Below, piece by piece: positions 507 to 14,364 of a stretch of 64,000 bases of DNA. The position numbers were made by a program, and so were the translations under genes. The number at the start of each line of letters is the position of its first letter. Position 1 is the stretch's first letter. Below the pieces are notes generated by a model. That model worked only from the letters and a program-made list of their open reading frames with translations, was not told where the DNA came from and did no database searches. Origin of the DNA: Thermomicrobiales bacterium (lineage in GTDB: Bacteria > Chloroflexota > Chloroflexia > Thermomicrobiales > UBA6265); NCBI GenBank assembly GCA_049841275.1, contig JASGDN010000036.1, positions 10,173 to 74,172 of the forward strand, written 5' to 3'.

Positions 507-1493
507 ATGAGCACGGTTCCCCTCCAGCACGAGCCACCGCCTCCGGAGCGCGCGCTTCCGGGGGACCGAACCCGGCGCCGTGTTCCCGAGAAGAAGCGCA
601 ACATCCTTCTCCGCATCCGCGATCACTGGGCCGACTACATCTACATCGCCCCGGCGCTGATCGTGATGGTCGTGGTGATCGGGTATCCGCTCGTCTACAC
701 GGTCTACCTCTCGTTCTTCGACACACCCCCACGCGGCGGACGCACCTTCAACGGCATCGACAACTACACGACCATCCTCCAGAGCGAGCGGTTCTGGATG
801 GTGACGAAGAACACCTTCAACTGGACCATCTTCTCCACGCTCTTCGCCTTCCTGCTCGGGTTCGGCGCGGCGCTCGTGATCCAGCGCGAATTCATCGGGC
901 GGAGCGTCGTCCGCGGCCTGTTGCTGATTCCCTGGGTCATCAGCTACGTCGCGGCCGCCTACGTCTGGCGCTGGCTCTACCATAGCGACTACGGCCTGAT
1001 CGGCGGCATGCTCCAAGAATACGGCATCACGAGGGACCGTTTCGTCTTCCTCGACTCCACGACCTGGGTCATGCCATCGCTGATCGTCGCGAACGTCTGG
1101 AAAGAGTTTCCATTCGTCATGATCATGCTGCTCGCCGGGCTGCAGACGGTGCCAGACCAGCTGATGCGCGCGGCGCGCGTCGACGGCGCAAATTCGTGGA
1201 ACCAATTCGTCCACGTCACCGTGCCACACCTGAAGAACGTTATCGTCATCACGCTGCTCCTGCTCTTCGTGACGAACCTGAACTCCTTCGGCCTCATCTG
1301 GATCATGACCGGAGGCGGCCCAGCCTACGCCTCCCAGATCTGGATCGTGGAGATCTACACGCTCGCCTTCCGCTCGCTGCGCTTCGGACTGGCGTCGGCA
1401 TTCTCCGTCATCCTCTTCCTCTTCATGCTCAGCATCGGCTACTTCTACGTCCGCGCCATGACGAGCGGCGAACGCGAACGGGGGTCGGCATGA
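507..1493 (+). CDS. Sugar ABC transporter permease (MalF/UgpA-like, CUT1 family)
   Basis: 328-aa polytopic protein with the EAA loop MRAARVDGANSWNQFVHVTVP. Its stop overlaps the next start (ATGA at 1490-1493). Confidence 0.9.
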   Translation: MSTVPLQHEPPPPERALPGDRTRRRVPEKKRNILLRIRDHWADYIYIAPALIVMVVVIGYPLVYTVYLSFFDTPPRGGRTFNGIDNYTTILQSERFWMVTKNTFNWTIFSTLFAFLLGFGAALVIQREFIGRSVVRGLLLIPWVISYVAAAYVWRWLYHSDYGLIGGMLQEYGITRDRFVFLDSTTWVMPSLIVANVWKEFPFVMIMLLAGLQTVPDQLMRAARVDGANSWNQFVHVTVPHLKNVIVITLLLLFVTNLNSFGLIWIMTGGGPAYASQIWIVEIYTLAFRSLRFGLASAFSVILFLFMLSIGYFYVRAMTSGERERGSA

Positions 1494-2383
1494 GCATCCA
1501 TCAGACCGAACGCCGGAAAACGTCCGGCTCACGCGAGAAGCGGAGGTTCCGATCCGACCAGCTGCTGGGCTGGATCTTCCTCGTCTTCCTGCTGGCCTAC
1601 GCCGTCATCCCCATGCTGTGGATGCTGTCGACCTCGCTGAAGACGCAATTCGGCGCGCTCCAGCAACCGCCGCGCTGGATCCCGGAACATCCGACGCTGG
1701 CGCAATACCGGTTGCTGCTCTCACCGTTCAACGACGTTGGCCGCGACTTCCTCCGTTACCTGCTGAACAGCCTCTGGGTCTCTACCGCAACGACCGTGCT
1801 GGGTGTCCTGGTAGCGGTGCCTGCGGCCTATGCCTTCTCGCGGTTCCGGTTTCCGGGCCGGAACGCACTCTTCTTCACCGTCCTCGTGCGGAACATGTTC
1901 CCGCTGGTGGTCTTCCTCATCCCGCTCTTCATCCTGATGAAGAACCTGCACCTTGTGAACACGCACTGGTCGCTCATCATCACGTACCTGACATTCGGCC
2001 TGCCGCTCTCGATCTGGCTGCTGAAGGGGTTCTACGACAACATCCCGCCCCAGCTCGAACAGGCCGCTCGCATCGACGGGGCGAGCCGGTTCCAGGCATT
2101 CTGGCTGATCGTGATGCCGCTTTCCTCGCCGGGCATCATCGCCACCGCCATCTACGCGTTCATCCAGGCCTGGAATGAGTACGTCTACGCGACGACGTTC
2201 CTCTCCGACGACCGCCTGCTGACACTGCCGGTCGGACTCCAGCGATTCTTCGCCGAGTACTCGACGAACTGGCCGGGCCTGATGGCGGCATCGTTCATCA
2301 TGAGCGTACCCGTCGTCGTGATGTTCCTGCTGCTGCAGAAGTACTTCGTCCGCGCACTGACCGAGGGCGCCGTCAAGTCGTGA
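1490..2383 (+). CDS. Sugar ABC transporter permease (MalG/UgpE-like, CUT1 family)
   Basis: The ATG at 1490 overlaps the upstream stop. EAA loop EQAARIDGASRFQAFWLIVMP. The tracked 1196 start is an off-target extension overlapping the previous gene. Confidence 0.9.
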   Translation: MSIHQTERRKTSGSREKRRFRSDQLLGWIFLVFLLAYAVIPMLWMLSTSLKTQFGALQQPPRWIPEHPTLAQYRLLLSPFNDVGRDFLRYLLNSLWVSTATTVLGVLVAVPAAYAFSRFRFPGRNALFFTVLVRNMFPLVVFLIPLFILMKNLHLVNTHWSLIITYLTFGLPLSIWLLKGFYDNIPPQLEQAARIDGASRFQAFWLIVMPLSSPGIIATAIYAFIQAWNEYVYATTFLSDDRLLTLPVGLQRFFAEYSTNWPGLMAASFIMSVPVVVMFLLLQKYFVRALTEGAVKS

Positions 2384-6047: not shown

Positions 6048-6728
6048 ATGGAAACGCTCTACCTGAAGGCGTTGGGACTGGGAATCGCCGGATTCGACCC
6101 CAGCGGCGCATTGGTCGCCATGGCCTTCCTCGCCGCCGGCGCCACCCGCAAGGCTGTCTTCCTCTTCTGCCTCGTGTACCTGACCGGGACGATCCTCCTC
6201 CTCACCATCGCCTCGGTGATCCTCAGCACGACATTACCCGGCACCGACTGGCGCATCCTCGATAGCCACCCCCGAACGAAGGCAGTGGTGGAACTGGCGA
6301 TCGGCATCGTCCTCCTCGCCATTGCCACCTACCATCACTTCCACACAGGCACCACTCGATCCTCGAAGCCCCGCTCCCTCCCGGTCTCGATCTGGGCAAC
6401 GGCCGGAACCGGTCTGCTGCTGGCAATCGGGGTGATTGGCGATCCGGCATTGCTCGCCTTCACGGTCGTCGCCGGCACTGCGAGCAACCTCCTCACGATC
6501 GCGATCGCGCAGATCGTCGCCGTTGTCGCCAGCAAGATACTGGTCGTAGTGGTGATGATCGCCGTCGCGGTCGACACCGATGGCCAGCTCATCGAGCGGC
6601 TGCGCACGTGGTGGACGCGCGCTACCCCGGCAATGGGACGGATTGTCACGATCGTGCTGATCGTCATGGCCTTCGCGCTCATCGTCAATGCCGCCTGGTG
6701 GTTCCGGACCGATACCTTCATCTTGTGA
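6048..6728 (+). CDS. Polytopic integral membrane protein, function unknown (GAP/Sap-like assignment is tentative)
   Basis: 226 aa with about 6 hydrophobic helices and GC3-rich codon usage. No catalytic motif recognised. Confidence 0.6.
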   Translation: METLYLKALGLGIAGFDPSGALVAMAFLAAGATRKAVFLFCLVYLTGTILLLTIASVILSTTLPGTDWRILDSHPRTKAVVELAIGIVLLAIATYHHFHTGTTRSSKPRSLPVSIWATAGTGLLLAIGVIGDPALLAFTVVAGTASNLLTIAIAQIVAVVASKILVVVVMIAVAVDTDGQLIERLRTWWTRATPAMGRIVTIVLIVMAFALIVNAAWWFRTDTFIL

Positions 6729-8826: not shown

Positions 8827-10521
8827 TCAGCGGATGCGCCCCACCACTTGCTCCGCCTCCTCGACGGTCAGCACCTCGCCGCCAAGCAGGGCGTTCATCT
8901 GGGTCGAGAACGTCAGCGATCCGGTCAACACCTCGCGCGGCGATCCGGTCGCAACGATCTCGCGATCGCCGAGCAGCACCACCGTTTGCGAGAATCGCGC
9001 CATCAGCTCGACATCGTGCGTCGCGATGACGACCGGCATGCCTTCCGCACAGAGGCCTCCGAGAAGCGTCATCAGCGCATCCTTGGCCCGCCAGTCCATG
9101 CCGCGCGTCGGCTCGTCTAGCAGCAGGATCGACGGCGAGCCGGCCAGCACCACCGCAATCGCGGCCCGCACGCGCTCCCCGACGCTGAGATCGCTCGGAT
9201 GACGGTTCGCCAGATCCGCAATCCCGATCCGTTCCAATACATCATCCACGTCATCGCGGGACATGGCGACCTGCCGCCGGGCTCCAGCCGCATCGATGGC
9301 CGCCTGGACATCGGCGCGCACCGTTTCGTGCCAGAGCAGCGCGGCGGGCTGTTGCGGCACATACCCGATCCCCCCAACCAGATCGCCGGGCGGCATCATC
9401 GACGCGCCGGCCCGAATCGTCACGCGTCCCTTGCGTGGCCGGTCGAGACCGGAGATAGCCCGCAGCAGGCTCGTCTTCCCGCTGCCGTTGCGGCCCATCA
9501 ATGCCACCATCTCGCCCATCCGAATGGAGAGCGAGATATCGCGCAGGACATCCCGGCCACCGCGCTGGACCGTGACCCGTTCGAGCCGGACAGCCTCCGG
9601 ACCAGATACTGTCGACTTGGGATATGTCGCCTGAGACACGCCTTGGATCAAGTCATCTGCGAGTCGTTCATCGCTATTTCGGGCTGATACGGGATATGTC
9701 GCTTCGAGCGCCCGGCGCCCCTCCTTCATCGTCAGCGGCAGTGGTGACCAGCCGACGCGGACGCCAAGCTGTGTCACCGGCGGCAGCGCCTCGTTCGGCA
9801 GCCGCGGGAGCATCGCAGCGACCGGGCCACCTGCAGTCCCGCCTCCGGGCAGCATCTCGACAACACGGTCCGCATGATGCAGCGTCCGTTCGAGCCGGTG
9901 CTCGGACATCAGGATCGTCGTCCCCAGATCGTCGTTGAGGCGCTTCACAACCGTCAGTACATCCTCGGCCGCCCACGGATCGAGCTGGCTCGTCGGCTCG
10001 TCGAGCACCAGCACACGGGGATGCAACGCCATCGCGGACGCGATCGCCACCCGCTGCCGCTCGCCGCCGGAGAGGGTCGCCGGTGACCGTTCGCGCAGGT
10101 GGCCGATCCCCAGGAGATCGAACGCCTCCTCCACCCGCTTGCGCATCGTCGCCCGTGGCACGCCGGCCTGTTCCATGCCGAACGCGATCTCATCGTCCAC
10201 GCGATCGGTGAGCATCTGCGCCTCGGGATCCTGGAAGACGAATCCGACGATGGCTGCCAGGTCGCGGGGACCGTGCGACCGCGTATCGAGCCCGGCGACG
10301 CGAACCACCCCGGCCAGCCGGCCGCCAGAAAAGTGCGGCACCAGCCCGTTCACCAGCCGCAGGAGCGTCGACTTCCCGGAGCCGGACTCTCCCACCACCA
10401 GCGTGAACGATGCCGTATCAAGGTGGAGAGAGACATCGCGCAAGGCCGGTTCCGATATGGCGGGATAGGCGTAGGAAACGTCCTCGATGGCAACAATGGA
10501 CGGGACAAGGGATGCCGTCAT
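8827..10521 (-). CDS. ECF transporter fused double ATPase (EcfA1-EcfA2/CbiO-like)
   Basis: Two ABC cassettes: GESGSGKST/LSGGERQR and GRNGSGKTS/LSVGERVR. The ATG at 10521 overlaps the stop of the upstream T component (ATGA). The tracked 944-aa ORF is an artefactual N-terminal extension. Confidence 0.9.
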   Translation of the reverse strand: MTASLVPSIVAIEDVSYAYPAISEPALRDVSLHLDTASFTLVVGESGSGKSTLLRLVNGLVPHFSGGRLAGVVRVAGLDTRSHGPRDLAAIVGFVFQDPEAQMLTDRVDDEIAFGMEQAGVPRATMRKRVEEAFDLLGIGHLRERSPATLSGGERQRVAIASAMALHPRVLVLDEPTSQLDPWAAEDVLTVVKRLNDDLGTTILMSEHRLERTLHHADRVVEMLPGGGTAGGPVAAMLPRLPNEALPPVTQLGVRVGWSPLPLTMKEGRRALEATYPVSARNSDERLADDLIQGVSQATYPKSTVSGPEAVRLERVTVQRGGRDVLRDISLSIRMGEMVALMGRNGSGKTSLLRAISGLDRPRKGRVTIRAGASMMPPGDLVGGIGYVPQQPAALLWHETVRADVQAAIDAAGARRQVAMSRDDVDDVLERIGIADLANRHPSDLSVGERVRAAIAVVLAGSPSILLLDEPTRGMDWRAKDALMTLLGGLCAEGMPVVIATHDVELMARFSQTVVLLGDREIVATGSPREVLTGSLTFSTQMNALLGGEVLTVEEAEQVVGRIR

Positions 10522-11570
10522 CGATCCGCCTCCGGCCCAAACGCCGCGAGAACGGCCGGCGTCGCCAGCAGCGGCAACACGATCATCACGACAAGATCGA
10601 CCGGAGGCCATGTCAACCGGGGATACGGGTCGAACGTCAGGCCCGCCCGATGCGTCGCCCATCGCGCCAGGAAGACGCCCGCAACTACGATTGCCCCGGC
10701 ACACACCAGGGAATCCGTCCAGCGCCAGCGGGCCTCCCGGTATCGTGTACGCAGGACAACCACCGCCGGGCGACGCAGCAAGCCAACCGTAAGCGCACCA
10801 ATGCCGCCGGCGAGCAGGATCGGCCAGGCGATGCGTCCCCCGGTGAAAAGGTCGTAGCAGGCAGCCGCCAACGCCACCAGACCGGCGACCAGCGAAAGGT
10901 CCGCAAGCCAGGCCCGTCGTGCGGACATCGCGCCAGCCGTACCGCCGAACCCGCGCGCCTCTAGCACCTCCGCGGTCGTCATCGCGCGTTCCAGCCCCTG
11001 CGCCAGCAACGGTACGATCAGCGGCAGGAATGTCCTCGGCCCATGCAACGGCATCCCGCGCAACCGCATCGACTCGCGGATGTCGGTGAAGGATCGCGAG
11101 AGTTCCGGCAGGAAGACCCACGCCACGGACCCCGCCACCGCCAGAACGGCGACCCGCTGGGGCAGGATTCGCATCAGATCGATCCAGCGGGCAAGCGCCC
11201 CCAGCGTGGTGCCGATCAGCAGCAGAACGAAGAGCGCGAGGGCGCTCACGACGCCGTAGGCAAATGCGTTCCACGTCAGGTCGCCCCCGATCAGCGGCCA
11301 GGCGTCCGGCAGGGACAGCAACACGCGATCGCCCGACCGCACGGTGAGGACGTTGAAGACGACGCCGATCGCCAGCATCACGGGCGCGAGGCGCAGCATC
11401 CAGCCGATACCGACGAGACGCTCCGGCGAGACACACGCGAAGCGCACGGTGAGGGCGATCATCCCAAGTTCGGCCAGCACGAAGGGGTTGCGGGCAACGA
11501 ATGCCACCAGGAAGGCACACCCTCCCCAGACGAGCCACGCACGGACATCGAACGACGGCGTCGCCCTCAT
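10518..11570 (-). CDS. ECF transporter transmembrane (T) component, CbiQ/EcfT family
   Basis: 350-aa polytopic protein with conserved Arg-containing coupling helices (..IRESMRLRG.. and ..EVLEARGFG..). ATGA overlaps at both ends. Confidence 0.88.
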   Translation of the reverse strand: MRATPSFDVRAWLVWGGCAFLVAFVARNPFVLAELGMIALTVRFACVSPERLVGIGWMLRLAPVMLAIGVVFNVLTVRSGDRVLLSLPDAWPLIGGDLTWNAFAYGVVSALALFVLLLIGTTLGALARWIDLMRILPQRVAVLAVAGSVAWVFLPELSRSFTDIRESMRLRGMPLHGPRTFLPLIVPLLAQGLERAMTTAEVLEARGFGGTAGAMSARRAWLADLSLVAGLVALAAACYDLFTGGRIAWPILLAGGIGALTVGLLRRPAVVVLRTRYREARWRWTDSLVCAGAIVVAGVFLARWATHRAGLTFDPYPRLTWPPVDLVVMIVLPLLATPAVLAAFGPEADR

Positions 11571-12247
11571 CCGAGGTGCATCCGGGTGCGGGAGGCCGTG
11601 CGGCGCACCAGCAGCACACCACCCACGCCCACCGCCAGGAGGATGATCCCTGCGCCGGCATAGGCAGCCGTCGATGGAGAAGCCGCCGCCGGCATCGCCA
11701 GACCGACCGAACGCACCGACGCCTGAAGCGGTGACGCGTCGGGATCGAAGCCGCTACGAGCCATCACGTCGTCGAGCGACAGGAACGGAACGTCCGCCGG
11801 CAGCCCCTGCCCACCCGCCCAGGCCCAGCCGTAGATCTGTCCGGCCTCCACCTTCACCCCTGACGCACCGAGCGGACTCATCACCCACCCGCTGTCACCA
11901 ACCAGGAGGTACCGCCAGAACGGGGAATTGCTATCGGCCGTCTGGCAAAGGCGTGTCCGGCAGGCAGAGACATCGCAGCCCACGACCTCGATCTTGCAGA
12001 CGCCCTGGCCGTAGCCGCCGAATCCGATCGCAAGCACCGTCAGCCCTGAACGCTCGAGCAGTGCAACGCCATCGATCTGCTCGCCATCCAGAGGCACGGT
12101 GGCATAGCTGTATGCGCCATCGCCATAGGAGATCACGAGTCCGGCGACATCCGGAGGCGCCGTTGCCGATACCGATGCTGGCGGCGCACCGCCAGACATG
12201 GCGGCCAGCAGCGCCCACGCAACGAGGACCGGGAGGATGCGTGGCAT
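11567..12247 (-). CDS. Secreted protein with a DUF4430-like (transcobalamin beta-domain-like) fold and a C-terminal TM anchor (tentative)
   Basis: Signal peptide MPRILPVLVAWALLAAMSGG. The core (..GVALLERSGLTV..GYGQGVCKIEVVGC..FWRYLLVGDSGWVMSPLGASGVKVEAGQIYGWAW) fits the DUF4430 pattern as I remember it. C-terminal helix AGIILLAVGVGGVLLV followed by basic residues. ATG 12247 has GGAGG upstream. Confidence 0.55.
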   Translation of the reverse strand: MPRILPVLVAWALLAAMSGGAPPASVSATAPPDVAGLVISYGDGAYSYATVPLDGEQIDGVALLERSGLTVLAIGFGGYGQGVCKIEVVGCDVSACRTRLCQTADSNSPFWRYLLVGDSGWVMSPLGASGVKVEAGQIYGWAWAGGQGLPADVPFLSLDDVMARSGFDPDASPLQASVRSVGLAMPAAASPSTAAYAGAGIILLAVGVGGVLLVRRTASRTRMHLG

Positions 12248-12313
12248 CCTCCCGGCCTCCCGCCCGTTCATCGACGTGGTGAATGCCCGCCCAGGACGCA
12301 CGACCGCGACCGG

Positions 12314-13312
12314 CTACGCCGCCAGCGCCGCGGCCGCCGGGACGATCGGGAATGCAACCTCGGCCTGCGCTGGAATCGCCTGCACCGTCGCGAGCAGGTT
12401 CGGACCCGGCATCGAATCCTGGTAGAGGAACGAACCGTCGGCATTCTGGAAGGTCGCCAGCGCTGCACTCAGCGGGGAGACATCCTCACCGACCGCCAGC
12501 AAGCCCTGGATCGCCAGCGCCGTCGAATTGGCGTCCGGCAACGACCCTTCCGCCGCGTTGTAAGATGCGCCGCCCGTGGTGATGGTCGTCTTCAGGTACG
12601 CTGCGCCACGCGTCGCCAGATCGCTCTTCTCCTCGCCCATCGCCGCCAACGCCTGCAGCACCATCGCCGTGGTGTTGCTGTCGGCATTTGCATCGTCGGC
12701 CGAGCCGTCGAAAGACCAACCGCCGTTCGTGGCCTGACCCTGCTGGATGGCATCGAGCGCAGAATCCGGAATGTCGGATCCGGTCGCCTTCAACGCCAGG
12801 ATGGCCAGAGCGTGATCGTAGAAGCCACCGCCGTAGATGCCAGTCTCCGCGTTTTGGCCGTGCTGGACGATCAAGATCGGCGTCACCGAAGCGAACCCGT
12901 TCGGATCGACACCGGCCGCAATCAGGCCAAGCGTCAGCTTCGCCGCCTGTCCGACCCCCGTCTGGGTGTAGACCAGCGCGACATCGCCACTCTCCAGATA
13001 GCCGATCGCCTTGTCGATGGAATCACCGACATCGACACCCGCGCCCTTCGCGGCAGCCAGTGCCGTAAGCGCGTCGACCGTCGTTCCCGCATCCGGTTCC
13101 CCGGAGAAGCCCATGAACGACCCGTCGTCGTTCTGCTGCGAGATCAGCCAGGCAGTCGCCGCTTCGATGCCGCCACCCGACACCGGCGATGCGACCGGAG
13201 ATGCAGCAGGCGACGCCTGCGCCAGCACTCCGCGCGCTCCTGGCAACAACGCCACCATCATCGCCAGCACGATCCCCAGGATCGCGATAACGCTTCGCCC
13301 TCGTGCTCTCAT
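12314..13312 (-). CDS. Secreted prenyltransferase/squalene-oxidase-repeat (alpha/alpha-toroid) protein
   Basis: Signal peptide followed by an ASPAASPVASP linker. Repeated QW-like motifs: QQNDDGSF, ATNGGWSF, QNADGSFLY. First gene downstream of the cobalamin riboswitch. Confidence 0.7.
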   Translation of the reverse strand: MRARGRSVIAILGIVLAMMVALLPGARGVLAQASPAASPVASPVSGGGIEAATAWLISQQNDDGSFMGFSGEPDAGTTVDALTALAAAKGAGVDVGDSIDKAIGYLESGDVALVYTQTGVGQAAKLTLGLIAAGVDPNGFASVTPILIVQHGQNAETGIYGGGFYDHALAILALKATGSDIPDSALDAIQQGQATNGGWSFDGSADDANADSNTTAMVLQALAAMGEEKSDLATRGAAYLKTTITTGGASYNAAEGSLPDANSTALAIQGLLAVGEDVSPLSAALATFQNADGSFLYQDSMPGPNLLATVQAIPAQAEVAFPIVPAAAALAA

Positions 13313-13405
13313 GCAGTTCCCTTCCAGACGCGAACTCGCGCCAGCCATTCCATCGTGCCGAACGCCCCGCGGGAACGCCGGATCACTCCCGAAACCAACG
13401 CAAAT

Positions 13406-13432
13406 GCCCCGCTCCTTGATGAGGAGCGGGGC
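13406..13432 (-). terminator. Putative riboswitch-controlled intrinsic terminator (expression platform)
   Basis: The minus strand reads gccccgctcct-catca-aggagcggggc followed by atttgcgttggttt. It lies between the B12 aptamer and the first ORF. Confidence 0.55.
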
Positions 13433-13519
13433 GAACCCGGAACGCGTTACCCCAGCACTTCATCGTGCGGCCGGGACGCGATCGCATCCGGAACCGGATG
13501 CCTCCTCCCTCTGACGCGA

Positions 13520-13650
13520 AGGGAGCAGCCTGCCACGATCCCAGGTCGCCTGACTTCCGCCAGCATAGCGGTCACAGTTGCGCGACAGTTCCGGACTCGC
13601 ACCGGATTCCCCTGGCTCACCGAAGCGTACACGCCTCGCCGATCGTCGCG
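13520..13650 (-). promoter_or_regulatory. Cobalamin (AdoCbl) riboswitch
   Basis: The minus strand reads GGTGAGCCAGGGGAATCCGGTGCGAGTCCGGAACTGTCGCGCAACTGTGACCGC..GCGGAAGTCAGGCGACCTGGG. This is the conserved GGGAA..GGTG.GA.TCC..CCGCAACTGT core plus the B12 box (AGTCAGG.GACCTG) at 13541-13560. Confidence 0.85.
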
Positions 13651-13731
13651 CCCGCGTATCGCGGGCACGGCAATCGTCCCACTCCGCAAGGCAGCATGTC
13701 AATCGCCCCGCGACGACCGCGACGGCAGCGC

Positions 13732-14364
13732 TCAGCTGTCGTAGACCGGCAGCCGCGCGACGAGGACCCCCTCCTCCGGCGCCATCTTCAGCACATATTC
13801 CGGATGGTTGGGAATCAGGATATCGGGACCGCCCGCGCTTGGCGTGACAACGAGCACATCGTGTGCGCCCGTCTCGATGAGATCGGAGACGGCGCCGATC
13901 TCGGCCCCCTGCTCGTCTTCCACCTTCAGGCCGATAAGCTGGAAGAGGAAATACTCGCCTTCCGCAAGCGGCCGCGCGTCGCTGCCGGCGATCTTCACCG
14001 CGCGCCCGCTCAGCTCCTTCGCCTGCTCCGGCGTGGTGATGCCTTCCAGCCGGATCAGCAACAGATCGCCGTGCTCACGTACGGCGAGCAACCGCATCGG
14101 CACGGGTGGCTCCCCGATGTAGACCTGCTTCACGGTGGCAAGGTGATCCGGCTGATCGGTGAGCACGCGCATCTTGAGTTCGCCACGCACCCCATGGCTC
14201 CCCGCCAGCACACCCTCGGTAAGGAATGTCTCGGAGACGGGTGTCGTCGGCTCGGGACCGGCCGTCTCGATCAGCCGCTTCACACGGGGGGCGGTGCGTC
14301 GCCGGGGACTGGCGGCCGGACGCCGCTTCGGGGCGCCGGAACCGGGATCGGAAGATTCGGGCAC
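13732..14364 (-). CDS. rimM: 16S rRNA processing protein RimM
   Basis: ..GVRGELKMRVLTDQP.. N-domain and a PRC-barrel C-domain (..YFLFQLIGLKVEDEQG..). Probable GTG start at 14364 with AGGAG 5 nt upstream. The tracked start at 14394 is also GTG. Confidence 0.85.
   Translation of the reverse strand: MPESSDPGSGAPKRRPAASPRRRTAPRVKRLIETAGPEPTTPVSETFLTEGVLAGSHGVRGELKMRVLTDQPDHLATVKQVYIGEPPVPMRLLAVREHGDLLLIRLEGITTPEQAKELSGRAVKIAGSDARPLAEGEYFLFQLIGLKVEDEQGAEIGAVSDLIETGAHDVLVVTPSAGGPDILIPNHPEYVLKMAPEEGVLVARLPVYDS

Follow-up and report, generated by a model that had tools for sequence, protein, structure and literature searches.

The locus considered here raises the question of how a dedicated vitamin B12 importer could operate when the gene for its substrate-specific subunit is absent from the operon. 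The DNA analysed, hereafter called the window, is a 64-kb stretch of contig JASGDN010000036.1 from a Thermomicrobiales bacterium, whose genome comprises 4.28 Mb in 97 contigs and is 96.8% complete; the names of its close homologues agree with this placement. In the window, a cobalamin riboswitch is followed by genes for two secreted proteins, called P1 and P2 below, and for the scaffold (T) and ATPase (A) components of an energy-coupling factor (ECF) transporter. We find that a CbrT-like substrate-specific (S) component is encoded elsewhere in the same genome, and that in one family of relatives the corresponding gene belongs to the operon itself. The locus is probably the B12-repressed core of a cobamide importer of the ECF-CbrT type, with the S component provided in trans and P1 and P2 serving for capture at the cell surface.

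B12 is a traded commodity among microbial communities, and its uptake by routes beyond BtuBFCD is poorly known. The locus joins elements that are usually treated separately, namely a cobalamin riboswitch, what is probably a CbrT-type ECF importer, and transcobalamin-like surface proteins. The setting is a B12-using, apparently B12-auxotrophic lineage of the Chloroflexota.

Riboswitch and transport module

The features of the locus are the following, with positions given in the window.

13523..13659, minus strand: cobalamin riboswitch aptamer (RF00174); cmscan 44.4 bits, gathering score 31.5, E 6.8e-8, full model 1-189
13406..13432, minus strand: terminator-like hairpin from a pattern scan; 11-bp stem (9 GC pairs), 5-nt loop, weak U tail
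12314..13348, minus strand: P1, secreted alpha/alpha-toroid protein; 344-aa open reading frame (ORF), probable start M13 at 13312
11567..12247, minus strand: P2, 226-aa secreted anchored protein; signal peptide, beta-grasp (SLBB/DUF4430-like) domain, Ala/Pro linker, C-terminal transmembrane (TM) helix
10518..11570, minus strand: EcfT/CbiQ T component, 350 aa; PF02361 30.3 bits, cut-off 25, residues 8-210
8827..10521, minus strand: fused EcfA-EcfA' ATPase, 564 aa; TIGR04520 (ECF_ATPase_1) 326 bits, cut-off 315; two PF00005 domains

The riboswitch is the sole Rfam family found above threshold in the window by cmscan, and the B12 box GCGGAAGUCAGGCGACCUGG lies inside the aptamer at 13560-13541. 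The hairpin sits 90 nt downstream of the aptamer; its strands GCCCCGCUCCU and AGGAGCGGGGC enclose the loop CAUCA and are followed by the tail AUUUGCGUUG (13432-13406). It is seen in both the minimum-free-energy and the centroid folds of 13380-13530, with z = -3.7. The first-pass annotation, made from the sequence without database searches, had called both the aptamer with its B12 box and the downstream terminator, and both calls hold. The hairpin would act as an attenuator in a B12-dependent switch.

Behind this leader, the gene order on the minus strand is P1 toroid, P2, EcfT and fused EcfA-A' ATPase. The four co-directional genes and the ATGA overlaps among the last three are as previously described: the EcfT start overlaps the P2 stop, and the ATPase start overlaps the EcfT stop, while 66 nt separate the toroid gene from P2. 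The operon is flanked by rimM upstream and by a convergent DUF4015 gene downstream. The same four-gene order, usually with the riboswitch, recurs beside rpsP-KH-rimM in relatives down to ca 45% identity, and RF00174 scores above threshold in six of the seven related loci for which DNA upstream of the toroid gene is available. In at least four families, P1 and P2 are retained strictly within the operon that the riboswitch controls.

The identities proposed earlier for the T component and the fused EcfA1-A2 are confirmed by the family matches listed above. The T component also matches the EcfT chains 5d3m_D, 4huq_T and 4hzu_T in the PDB, carries two coupling motifs of the Ala-Arg-Gly type, RLRG and EARGF, and is the sole CbiQ match in the genome. 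Beyond the second of these motifs it continues for ca 130 extra C-terminal residues (ca 215-350), in which a TM scan predicts four TM helices and for which no family match was obtained. In the family called f5 below, the extension of the EcfT orthologue has two TM helices only. The idea that this extension substitutes for the S component was considered and then rejected, after the CbrT-like gene and the f5 operons had been found.

It should be added that the rimM stop codon is only ca 70 nt upstream of the aptamer, and that no terminator was detected in the interval between them (window 13660-13732). Transcription could therefore run on from the rpsP-KH-rimM operon into the riboswitch leader.

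The S component

The first-pass annotation had found it odd that a riboswitch-controlled energising module should lack an S component. The absence itself stands, as there is no S-component gene within the operon or adjoining it, where rimM and the DUF4015 gene are found instead. The oddity, however, is explained by a gene on contig 14 (G000:C14:18379-19209), the sole PF12822 S-component gene in the genome (50.2 bits, cut-off 30.7). PF09819 (ABC_cobalt) and BioY are absent from the genome; the CbiM, QueT, ThiW and DUF6580 families were not searched. The contig-14 gene is isolated: judged from their translations, its neighbours are a divergent gene resembling a regulator and a convergent one resembling an oxidoreductase.

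We then consider what kind of S component this is. CbrT was reportedly first predicted by Rodionov et al. 2009, as cited in PMC5997447. A profile built from 20 orthologs of the contig-14 protein, searched against 177,635 PDB sequences, matches only 6fnp_A (E 1.4e-5), the CbrT subunit of the B12 importer ECF-CbrT, while the single sequence gives no match in the PDB. The gene can thus be called CbrT-like in the sense of remote homology, and the genome-wide search for such an S component, which had been proposed earlier, has a positive outcome.

The relation of this gene to the operon becomes clear from family f5. In this sister family, the ATPase gene is immediately followed, on the same strand, by the S gene, which is the fifth gene of a riboswitch-led operon. 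Locus L074 has the gene order toroid, P2, T-A and S, with the start of S overlapping the preceding stop (ATGA), and a cobalamin riboswitch is present in front of the operon in three f5 loci. In families f1, f3 and f4, on the other hand, the S gene is 100 kb to 1.6 Mb distant on the same contig or on a different contig. Since the S gene is in the operon in f5 and a CbrT-like gene is present elsewhere in our genome, the window operon is not S-less. It is a five-gene ancestral or sister arrangement in which the S gene has been relocated. A survey of 81 genomes of the order found S together with P2 in 63 and neither of them in 11, the remaining seven being discordant (Fisher p 2e-8).

Two further details of L074 may be mentioned. 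Its T component and double ATPase are encoded in one uninterrupted 921-aa ORF (L074 1872-4637, G025:C80), which is either a fused T-A-A' chain or contains an internal start, and its S orthologue has an insertion of ca 50 residues.

Another candidate was a 226-aa polytopic membrane protein encoded at 6048-6728 on the plus strand of the window. The idea that it is a hidden S component was rejected, since it matches no S family, gives only a weak SfLAP match (E 0.08) and lies on the opposite strand beyond the convergent gene. In the relative L008 (13664-14344), a 226-aa gene with no Pfam match occupies the same relative position. Both stand beside a conserved DUF4015/CarboxypepD_reg gene.

The secreted proteins P1 and P2

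We now consider the two proteins that precede the transporter genes. Read from M13, P1 has a Sec-type signal peptide and an Ala/Pro/Ser linker, and it is without a membrane anchor. Its matches to the Pfam families SQHop_cyclase and Prenyltrans are sub-threshold (23.3 and 21.7 bits, with a cut-off of ca 26), and so is the one to PF01122 (Cobalamin_bind), with 14.2 bits (E 0.021) where the cut-off is 25. The latter family is touched by 7 of 38 P1 orthologs at E<=0.1, with a best E of 1.2e-5. Membership of the NCBIfam 'SCO2321 family' was rejected, the score being 56.7 bits against a cut-off of 300.

The AlphaFold2 (AF2) model of P1 is an alpha/alpha toroid with a predicted local distance difference test score (pLDDT) of 90.3. 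In Foldseek, the top matches are single-domain cyclases resembling squalene-hopene cyclase (E 6e-8, TM-score 0.6). Transcobalamin chains follow from rank 13, with E ca 3e-5 and a TM-score of ca 0.5, that is, below the terpene cyclases. Neither of the catalytic motifs DxDD and DDxxD is present in the P1 sequence, which is not what is expected of a terpene cyclase.

The beta-grasp domain of P2 comprises ca 120 residues, and the protein ends, after its TM anchor, with an RR tail. Searches of P2 against Pfam and NCBIfam yielded only weak C-terminal matches resembling sorting signals (E 0.01-0.04), which were dismissed and read as a generic TM helix with a basic tail. The domain contains four invariant cysteines, C84, C91, C96 and C101 in the numbering of P0001 (C-x6-C-x4-C-x4-C), which are conserved across all 49 members of the broad alignment described next. 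They lie in an insert that is missing from canonical DUF4430, and where the confidence of the AF2 model is below 50.

Because P2 is without a Pfam match (see below), the label DUF4430-like required profile-profile evidence. Two alignments of the family were used, a narrow one of 15 members (A1) and a broad one of 49 diverse members (A3), along with five bona fide DUF4430 domains taken from other Chloroflexota; no DUF4430 domain was found anywhere in the source genome. Although none of the 49 members matches DUF4430 at E<=0.01 when searched singly, hhalign connects A3 with the five domains at 95.1% (E 3.1e-8) over 75 columns, which is nearly the whole domain. A PDB profile search with the P2 alignment gave nothing at E<=10. 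Judged from these alignments, P2 is a divergent, cysteine-rich relative of DUF4430/SLBB that is invisible to Pfam.

A profile search of the full 50% identity library puts the size of the P2 family at 2001 clusters at least. Fusion proteins occur among the 49 members: four combine P2 with toroid domains, in either order, and another, P0159, joins it to CbiQ and is likewise long-tailed.

That P1 and P2 form a split transcobalamin-like pair, as the first-pass annotation had suggested, is a reasonable structural reading. It is favoured by the hhalign connection between P2 and DUF4430, by the transcobalamin matches of P1 in Foldseek and by the fusions. The suggestion does not hold in full, as P1 is in structure closer to single-domain terpene cyclases than to transcobalamin, and the binding of B12 by P1 and P2, with its hand-over to the S component, is a prediction.

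Proposed mechanism

MetH is encoded in the genome, as is a B12-binding subunit of the mutase type with the DxHxxG motif, and both CbiC and CobS are absent from it. With B12 users present and these two enzymes missing, the host probably needs complete cobamides from outside, and is thus probably a B12 auxotroph.

In the mechanism we favour, high intracellular cobalamin would make the riboswitch favour the terminator, turning the operon off. With the operon on, the EcfT scaffold and the fused EcfA-A' would form the only ECF module of the genome, while P1 would be exported as a soluble protein and P2 as a membrane-tethered one. The module would pair with the CbrT-like S component from contig 14, the operon linkage of whose gene would have been lost in the lineage of the window. 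P1 and P2 would most likely act as the alpha and beta domains of transcobalamin do, capturing scarce cobamide at the surface and passing it to the S component. On its own, without the module, CbrT is inactive (PMC5997447), and riboswitch control of the module alone would therefore suffice to shut uptake.

Three traits are particular to this locus: the unlinked, riboswitch-free cbrT-like gene, the cysteine-rich SLBB branch that Pfam does not see, and the extended EcfT. To our knowledge, ECF transporters are a class defined by the absence of a soluble binding protein. One can speculate that the ECF transporter here uses a soluble toroid together with a tethered, cysteine-rich SLBB protein as a capture device feeding the CbrT-like S component, that the P2 cysteines could provide a thiol ligand to cobalt or a BtuM-like decyanation rather than disulfides only, and that the extended EcfT could dock P2. 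This combined proposal is tentative, and we regard it as rather doubtful that all of its parts are correct.

Comparison with known systems

In animal transcobalamin, intrinsic factor and haptocorrin (2bb5, 2bb6, 4kki), a toroid and a beta-grasp domain sandwich B12. P1 and P2 share with these proteins the alpha6/alpha6 toroid and the small beta-grasp fold, but they are separate polypeptides, and P2 is membrane-anchored with a four-cysteine insert. The similarity in sequence is also marginal (14 bits to PF01122, none to PF14478), and ligand binding by P1 and P2 is a prediction.

The closest characterized transporter is ECF-CbrT of Lactobacillus delbrueckii (6FNP; Santos et al. 2018), which has been shown experimentally to import B12 and cobinamide (PMC5997447). 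The two systems have in common the EcfT scaffold, two ABC ATPase domains and a CbrT-like S component that depends on the module. The substrate, cobalamin or cobinamide, demonstrated for L. delbrueckii, would be shared as well. The window system differs in that its ATPases form a single chain, its EcfT has four extra TM helices and two secreted proteins are co-encoded. In addition, the module is behind a riboswitch and the S gene is not. The S component is also longer, ca 277 aa compared to 182 aa, with extra N-terminal TM helices, and the similarity is remote at a profile E of 1.4e-5.

Burroughs, Balaji, Iyer and Aravind (2007) reported transcobalamin-like SLBB proteins of bacteria that are encoded in CbiO/CbiQ operons, either fused to toroids or next to them, and predicted B12 scavenging for these SLBB/toroid systems (PMC1796856). 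Common to those systems and the present one are a beta-grasp protein, secreted or anchored, that is encoded with a toroid protein and with CbiQ- and CbiO-like genes, the occurrence of fused and split versions, and hosts without B12 biosynthesis genes. In contrast, P2 represents a divergent cysteine-rich branch missed by the Pfam DUF4430 model, the host belongs to the Thermomicrobiales (Chloroflexota) and is not a Gram-positive Firmicute, and the links to a CbrT-like S component and to a riboswitch are made explicit here.

A preprint on the Lactobacillus (Latilactobacillus) sakei operon lsa1836-1840, with the layout S/A/T/beta/alpha, argues for haem uptake (10.1101/864751). There, too, ECF S, A and T components occur together with separate beta-like and alpha-like proteins related to transcobalamin, that is, a split pair. 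The S gene is however in the operon and haem is the argued substrate, whereas in the window system the S gene is unlinked, and cobamides are indicated by the riboswitch and by the likeness of the S component to CbrT. The type of system was thus already anticipated by the prediction of Burroughs et al. and by the proposal for L. sakei, and the present locus is a variant of it.

Points against the proposal and alternative explanations

It is important to point out that a number of observations weigh against the importer proposed here. No riboswitch precedes the contig-14 S gene at E<=0.1, and none reaches the gathering score before the S gene in 20 related loci. The match to CbrT consists of two partial stretches and is modest and remote. 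In structure, the P1 model resembles terpene cyclases more closely than transcobalamin, and the toroid is a generic fold. For P2, the Pfam search, DUF4430 (PF14478) included, returns zero matches even at E<=10, the hhalign comparison is not significant with the narrow A1 (E 0.09), and the best PDB matches of its AF2 model (pLDDT 73) in Foldseek, although transcobalamin and haptocorrin, are non-significant (E 0.2-0.8). The co-occurrence test is inflated by shared ancestry, family f2 alone accounting for 7 of the 11 joint absences. As to the seven discordant genomes, four are less than 90% complete, two (G061 and G080, 91-94% complete) have S without P2, and in G015 the S gene is of the in-operon type. 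In the literature consulted we found no experimental test of B12 binding for a bacterial toroid/SLBB pair or a homologue.

We have considered three other explanations. If P1 and P2 were envelope proteins that are merely co-transcribed and do not bind B12, such as a toroid that binds glycans or isoprenoids and a wall protein rich in disulfides, then the closeness of P1 to terpene cyclases and prenyltransferases, the failure of P2 with the DUF4430 model, its weak fold matches and its cysteine-rich insert without a transcobalamin counterpart would all be natural. It would, however, be less easy to see why the two are strictly conserved in a riboswitch-controlled operon in at least four families, and why fusions of toroid and P2 mirror the architecture of transcobalamin. 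The hhalign connection to DUF4430 and the missing catalytic motifs of P1 speak in the same direction, and we therefore judge this explanation unlikely. The cargo could also be another tetrapyrrole or a metal, with haem, as for lsa1836-1840, and Co2+, as for CbiMNQO, as candidates and with B12 acting merely as the regulator. Apart from the comparable layout of the L. sakei operon, the 'cobalt transport' names of the T and A families would suggest this. Set against them are the conservation of the cobalamin riboswitch across families and an S component nearest to CbrT; moreover, a B12-using genome without CbiC and CobS has no use in corrin synthesis for cobalt or cobinamide (CbiM was not searched). 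A different cargo appears quite improbable to us.

The remaining explanation takes the operon at face value, as a self-sufficient transporter truly without an S component, in which the extended EcfT helices, perhaps together with the P2 anchor, carry out the translocation, and to which the contig-14 S gene is unrelated. The size of the extension with its four predicted helices, the existence of a P2-CbiQ fusion and the unlinked, riboswitch-free S genes of f1, f3 and f4 would fit this picture. Yet the S gene is part of the operon in f5, where the extension has two helices only, S and P2 occur together and are lost together in the genomes of the order, and the S profile specifically matches CbrT. 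The contig-14 gene is, furthermore, the only S component available to the only ECF module. We know of no ECF transporter that functions without an S component, and consider this explanation very improbable. The cobamide importer with an S component in trans thus remains the reading that we prefer.

Implications

With at least 2000 clusters at 50% identity, the P2 family is a DUF4430 relative without Pfam coverage, and current annotation therefore overlooks it. On the practical side, it is advisable to search the whole genome for a 'missing' S component before declaring a system incomplete. If P1 and P2 do bind B12, ECF transporters can employ accessory extracytoplasmic binders. The textbook distinction between ECF and classical ATP-binding cassette (ABC) importers would then need revision, and the pair would serve as a bacterial model of how animal transcobalamin originated.

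Other possibly B12-linked loci

A second, partial match to the cobalamin riboswitch was found in the genome at G000:C86:181423-181490 (L006 5424-5491, plus strand), with 34.8 bits over model positions 46-168. It lies ca 215 nt upstream of an 810-aa ORF (L006 5706-8138) resembling transketolase and pyruvate dehydrogenase E1, which is an unusual target for B12 control.

Finally, in two small Chloroflexota genomes (L079, G226:C66, and L080, G172:C7; ca 947-1995, minus strand), a DUF4430 gene overlaps the start of a gene for a multi-TM protein of ca 220 aa that carries the motif 'LPHPANFAPVAA'. This protein may be a solitary B12 transporter of the BtuM/DUF6580-like kind.

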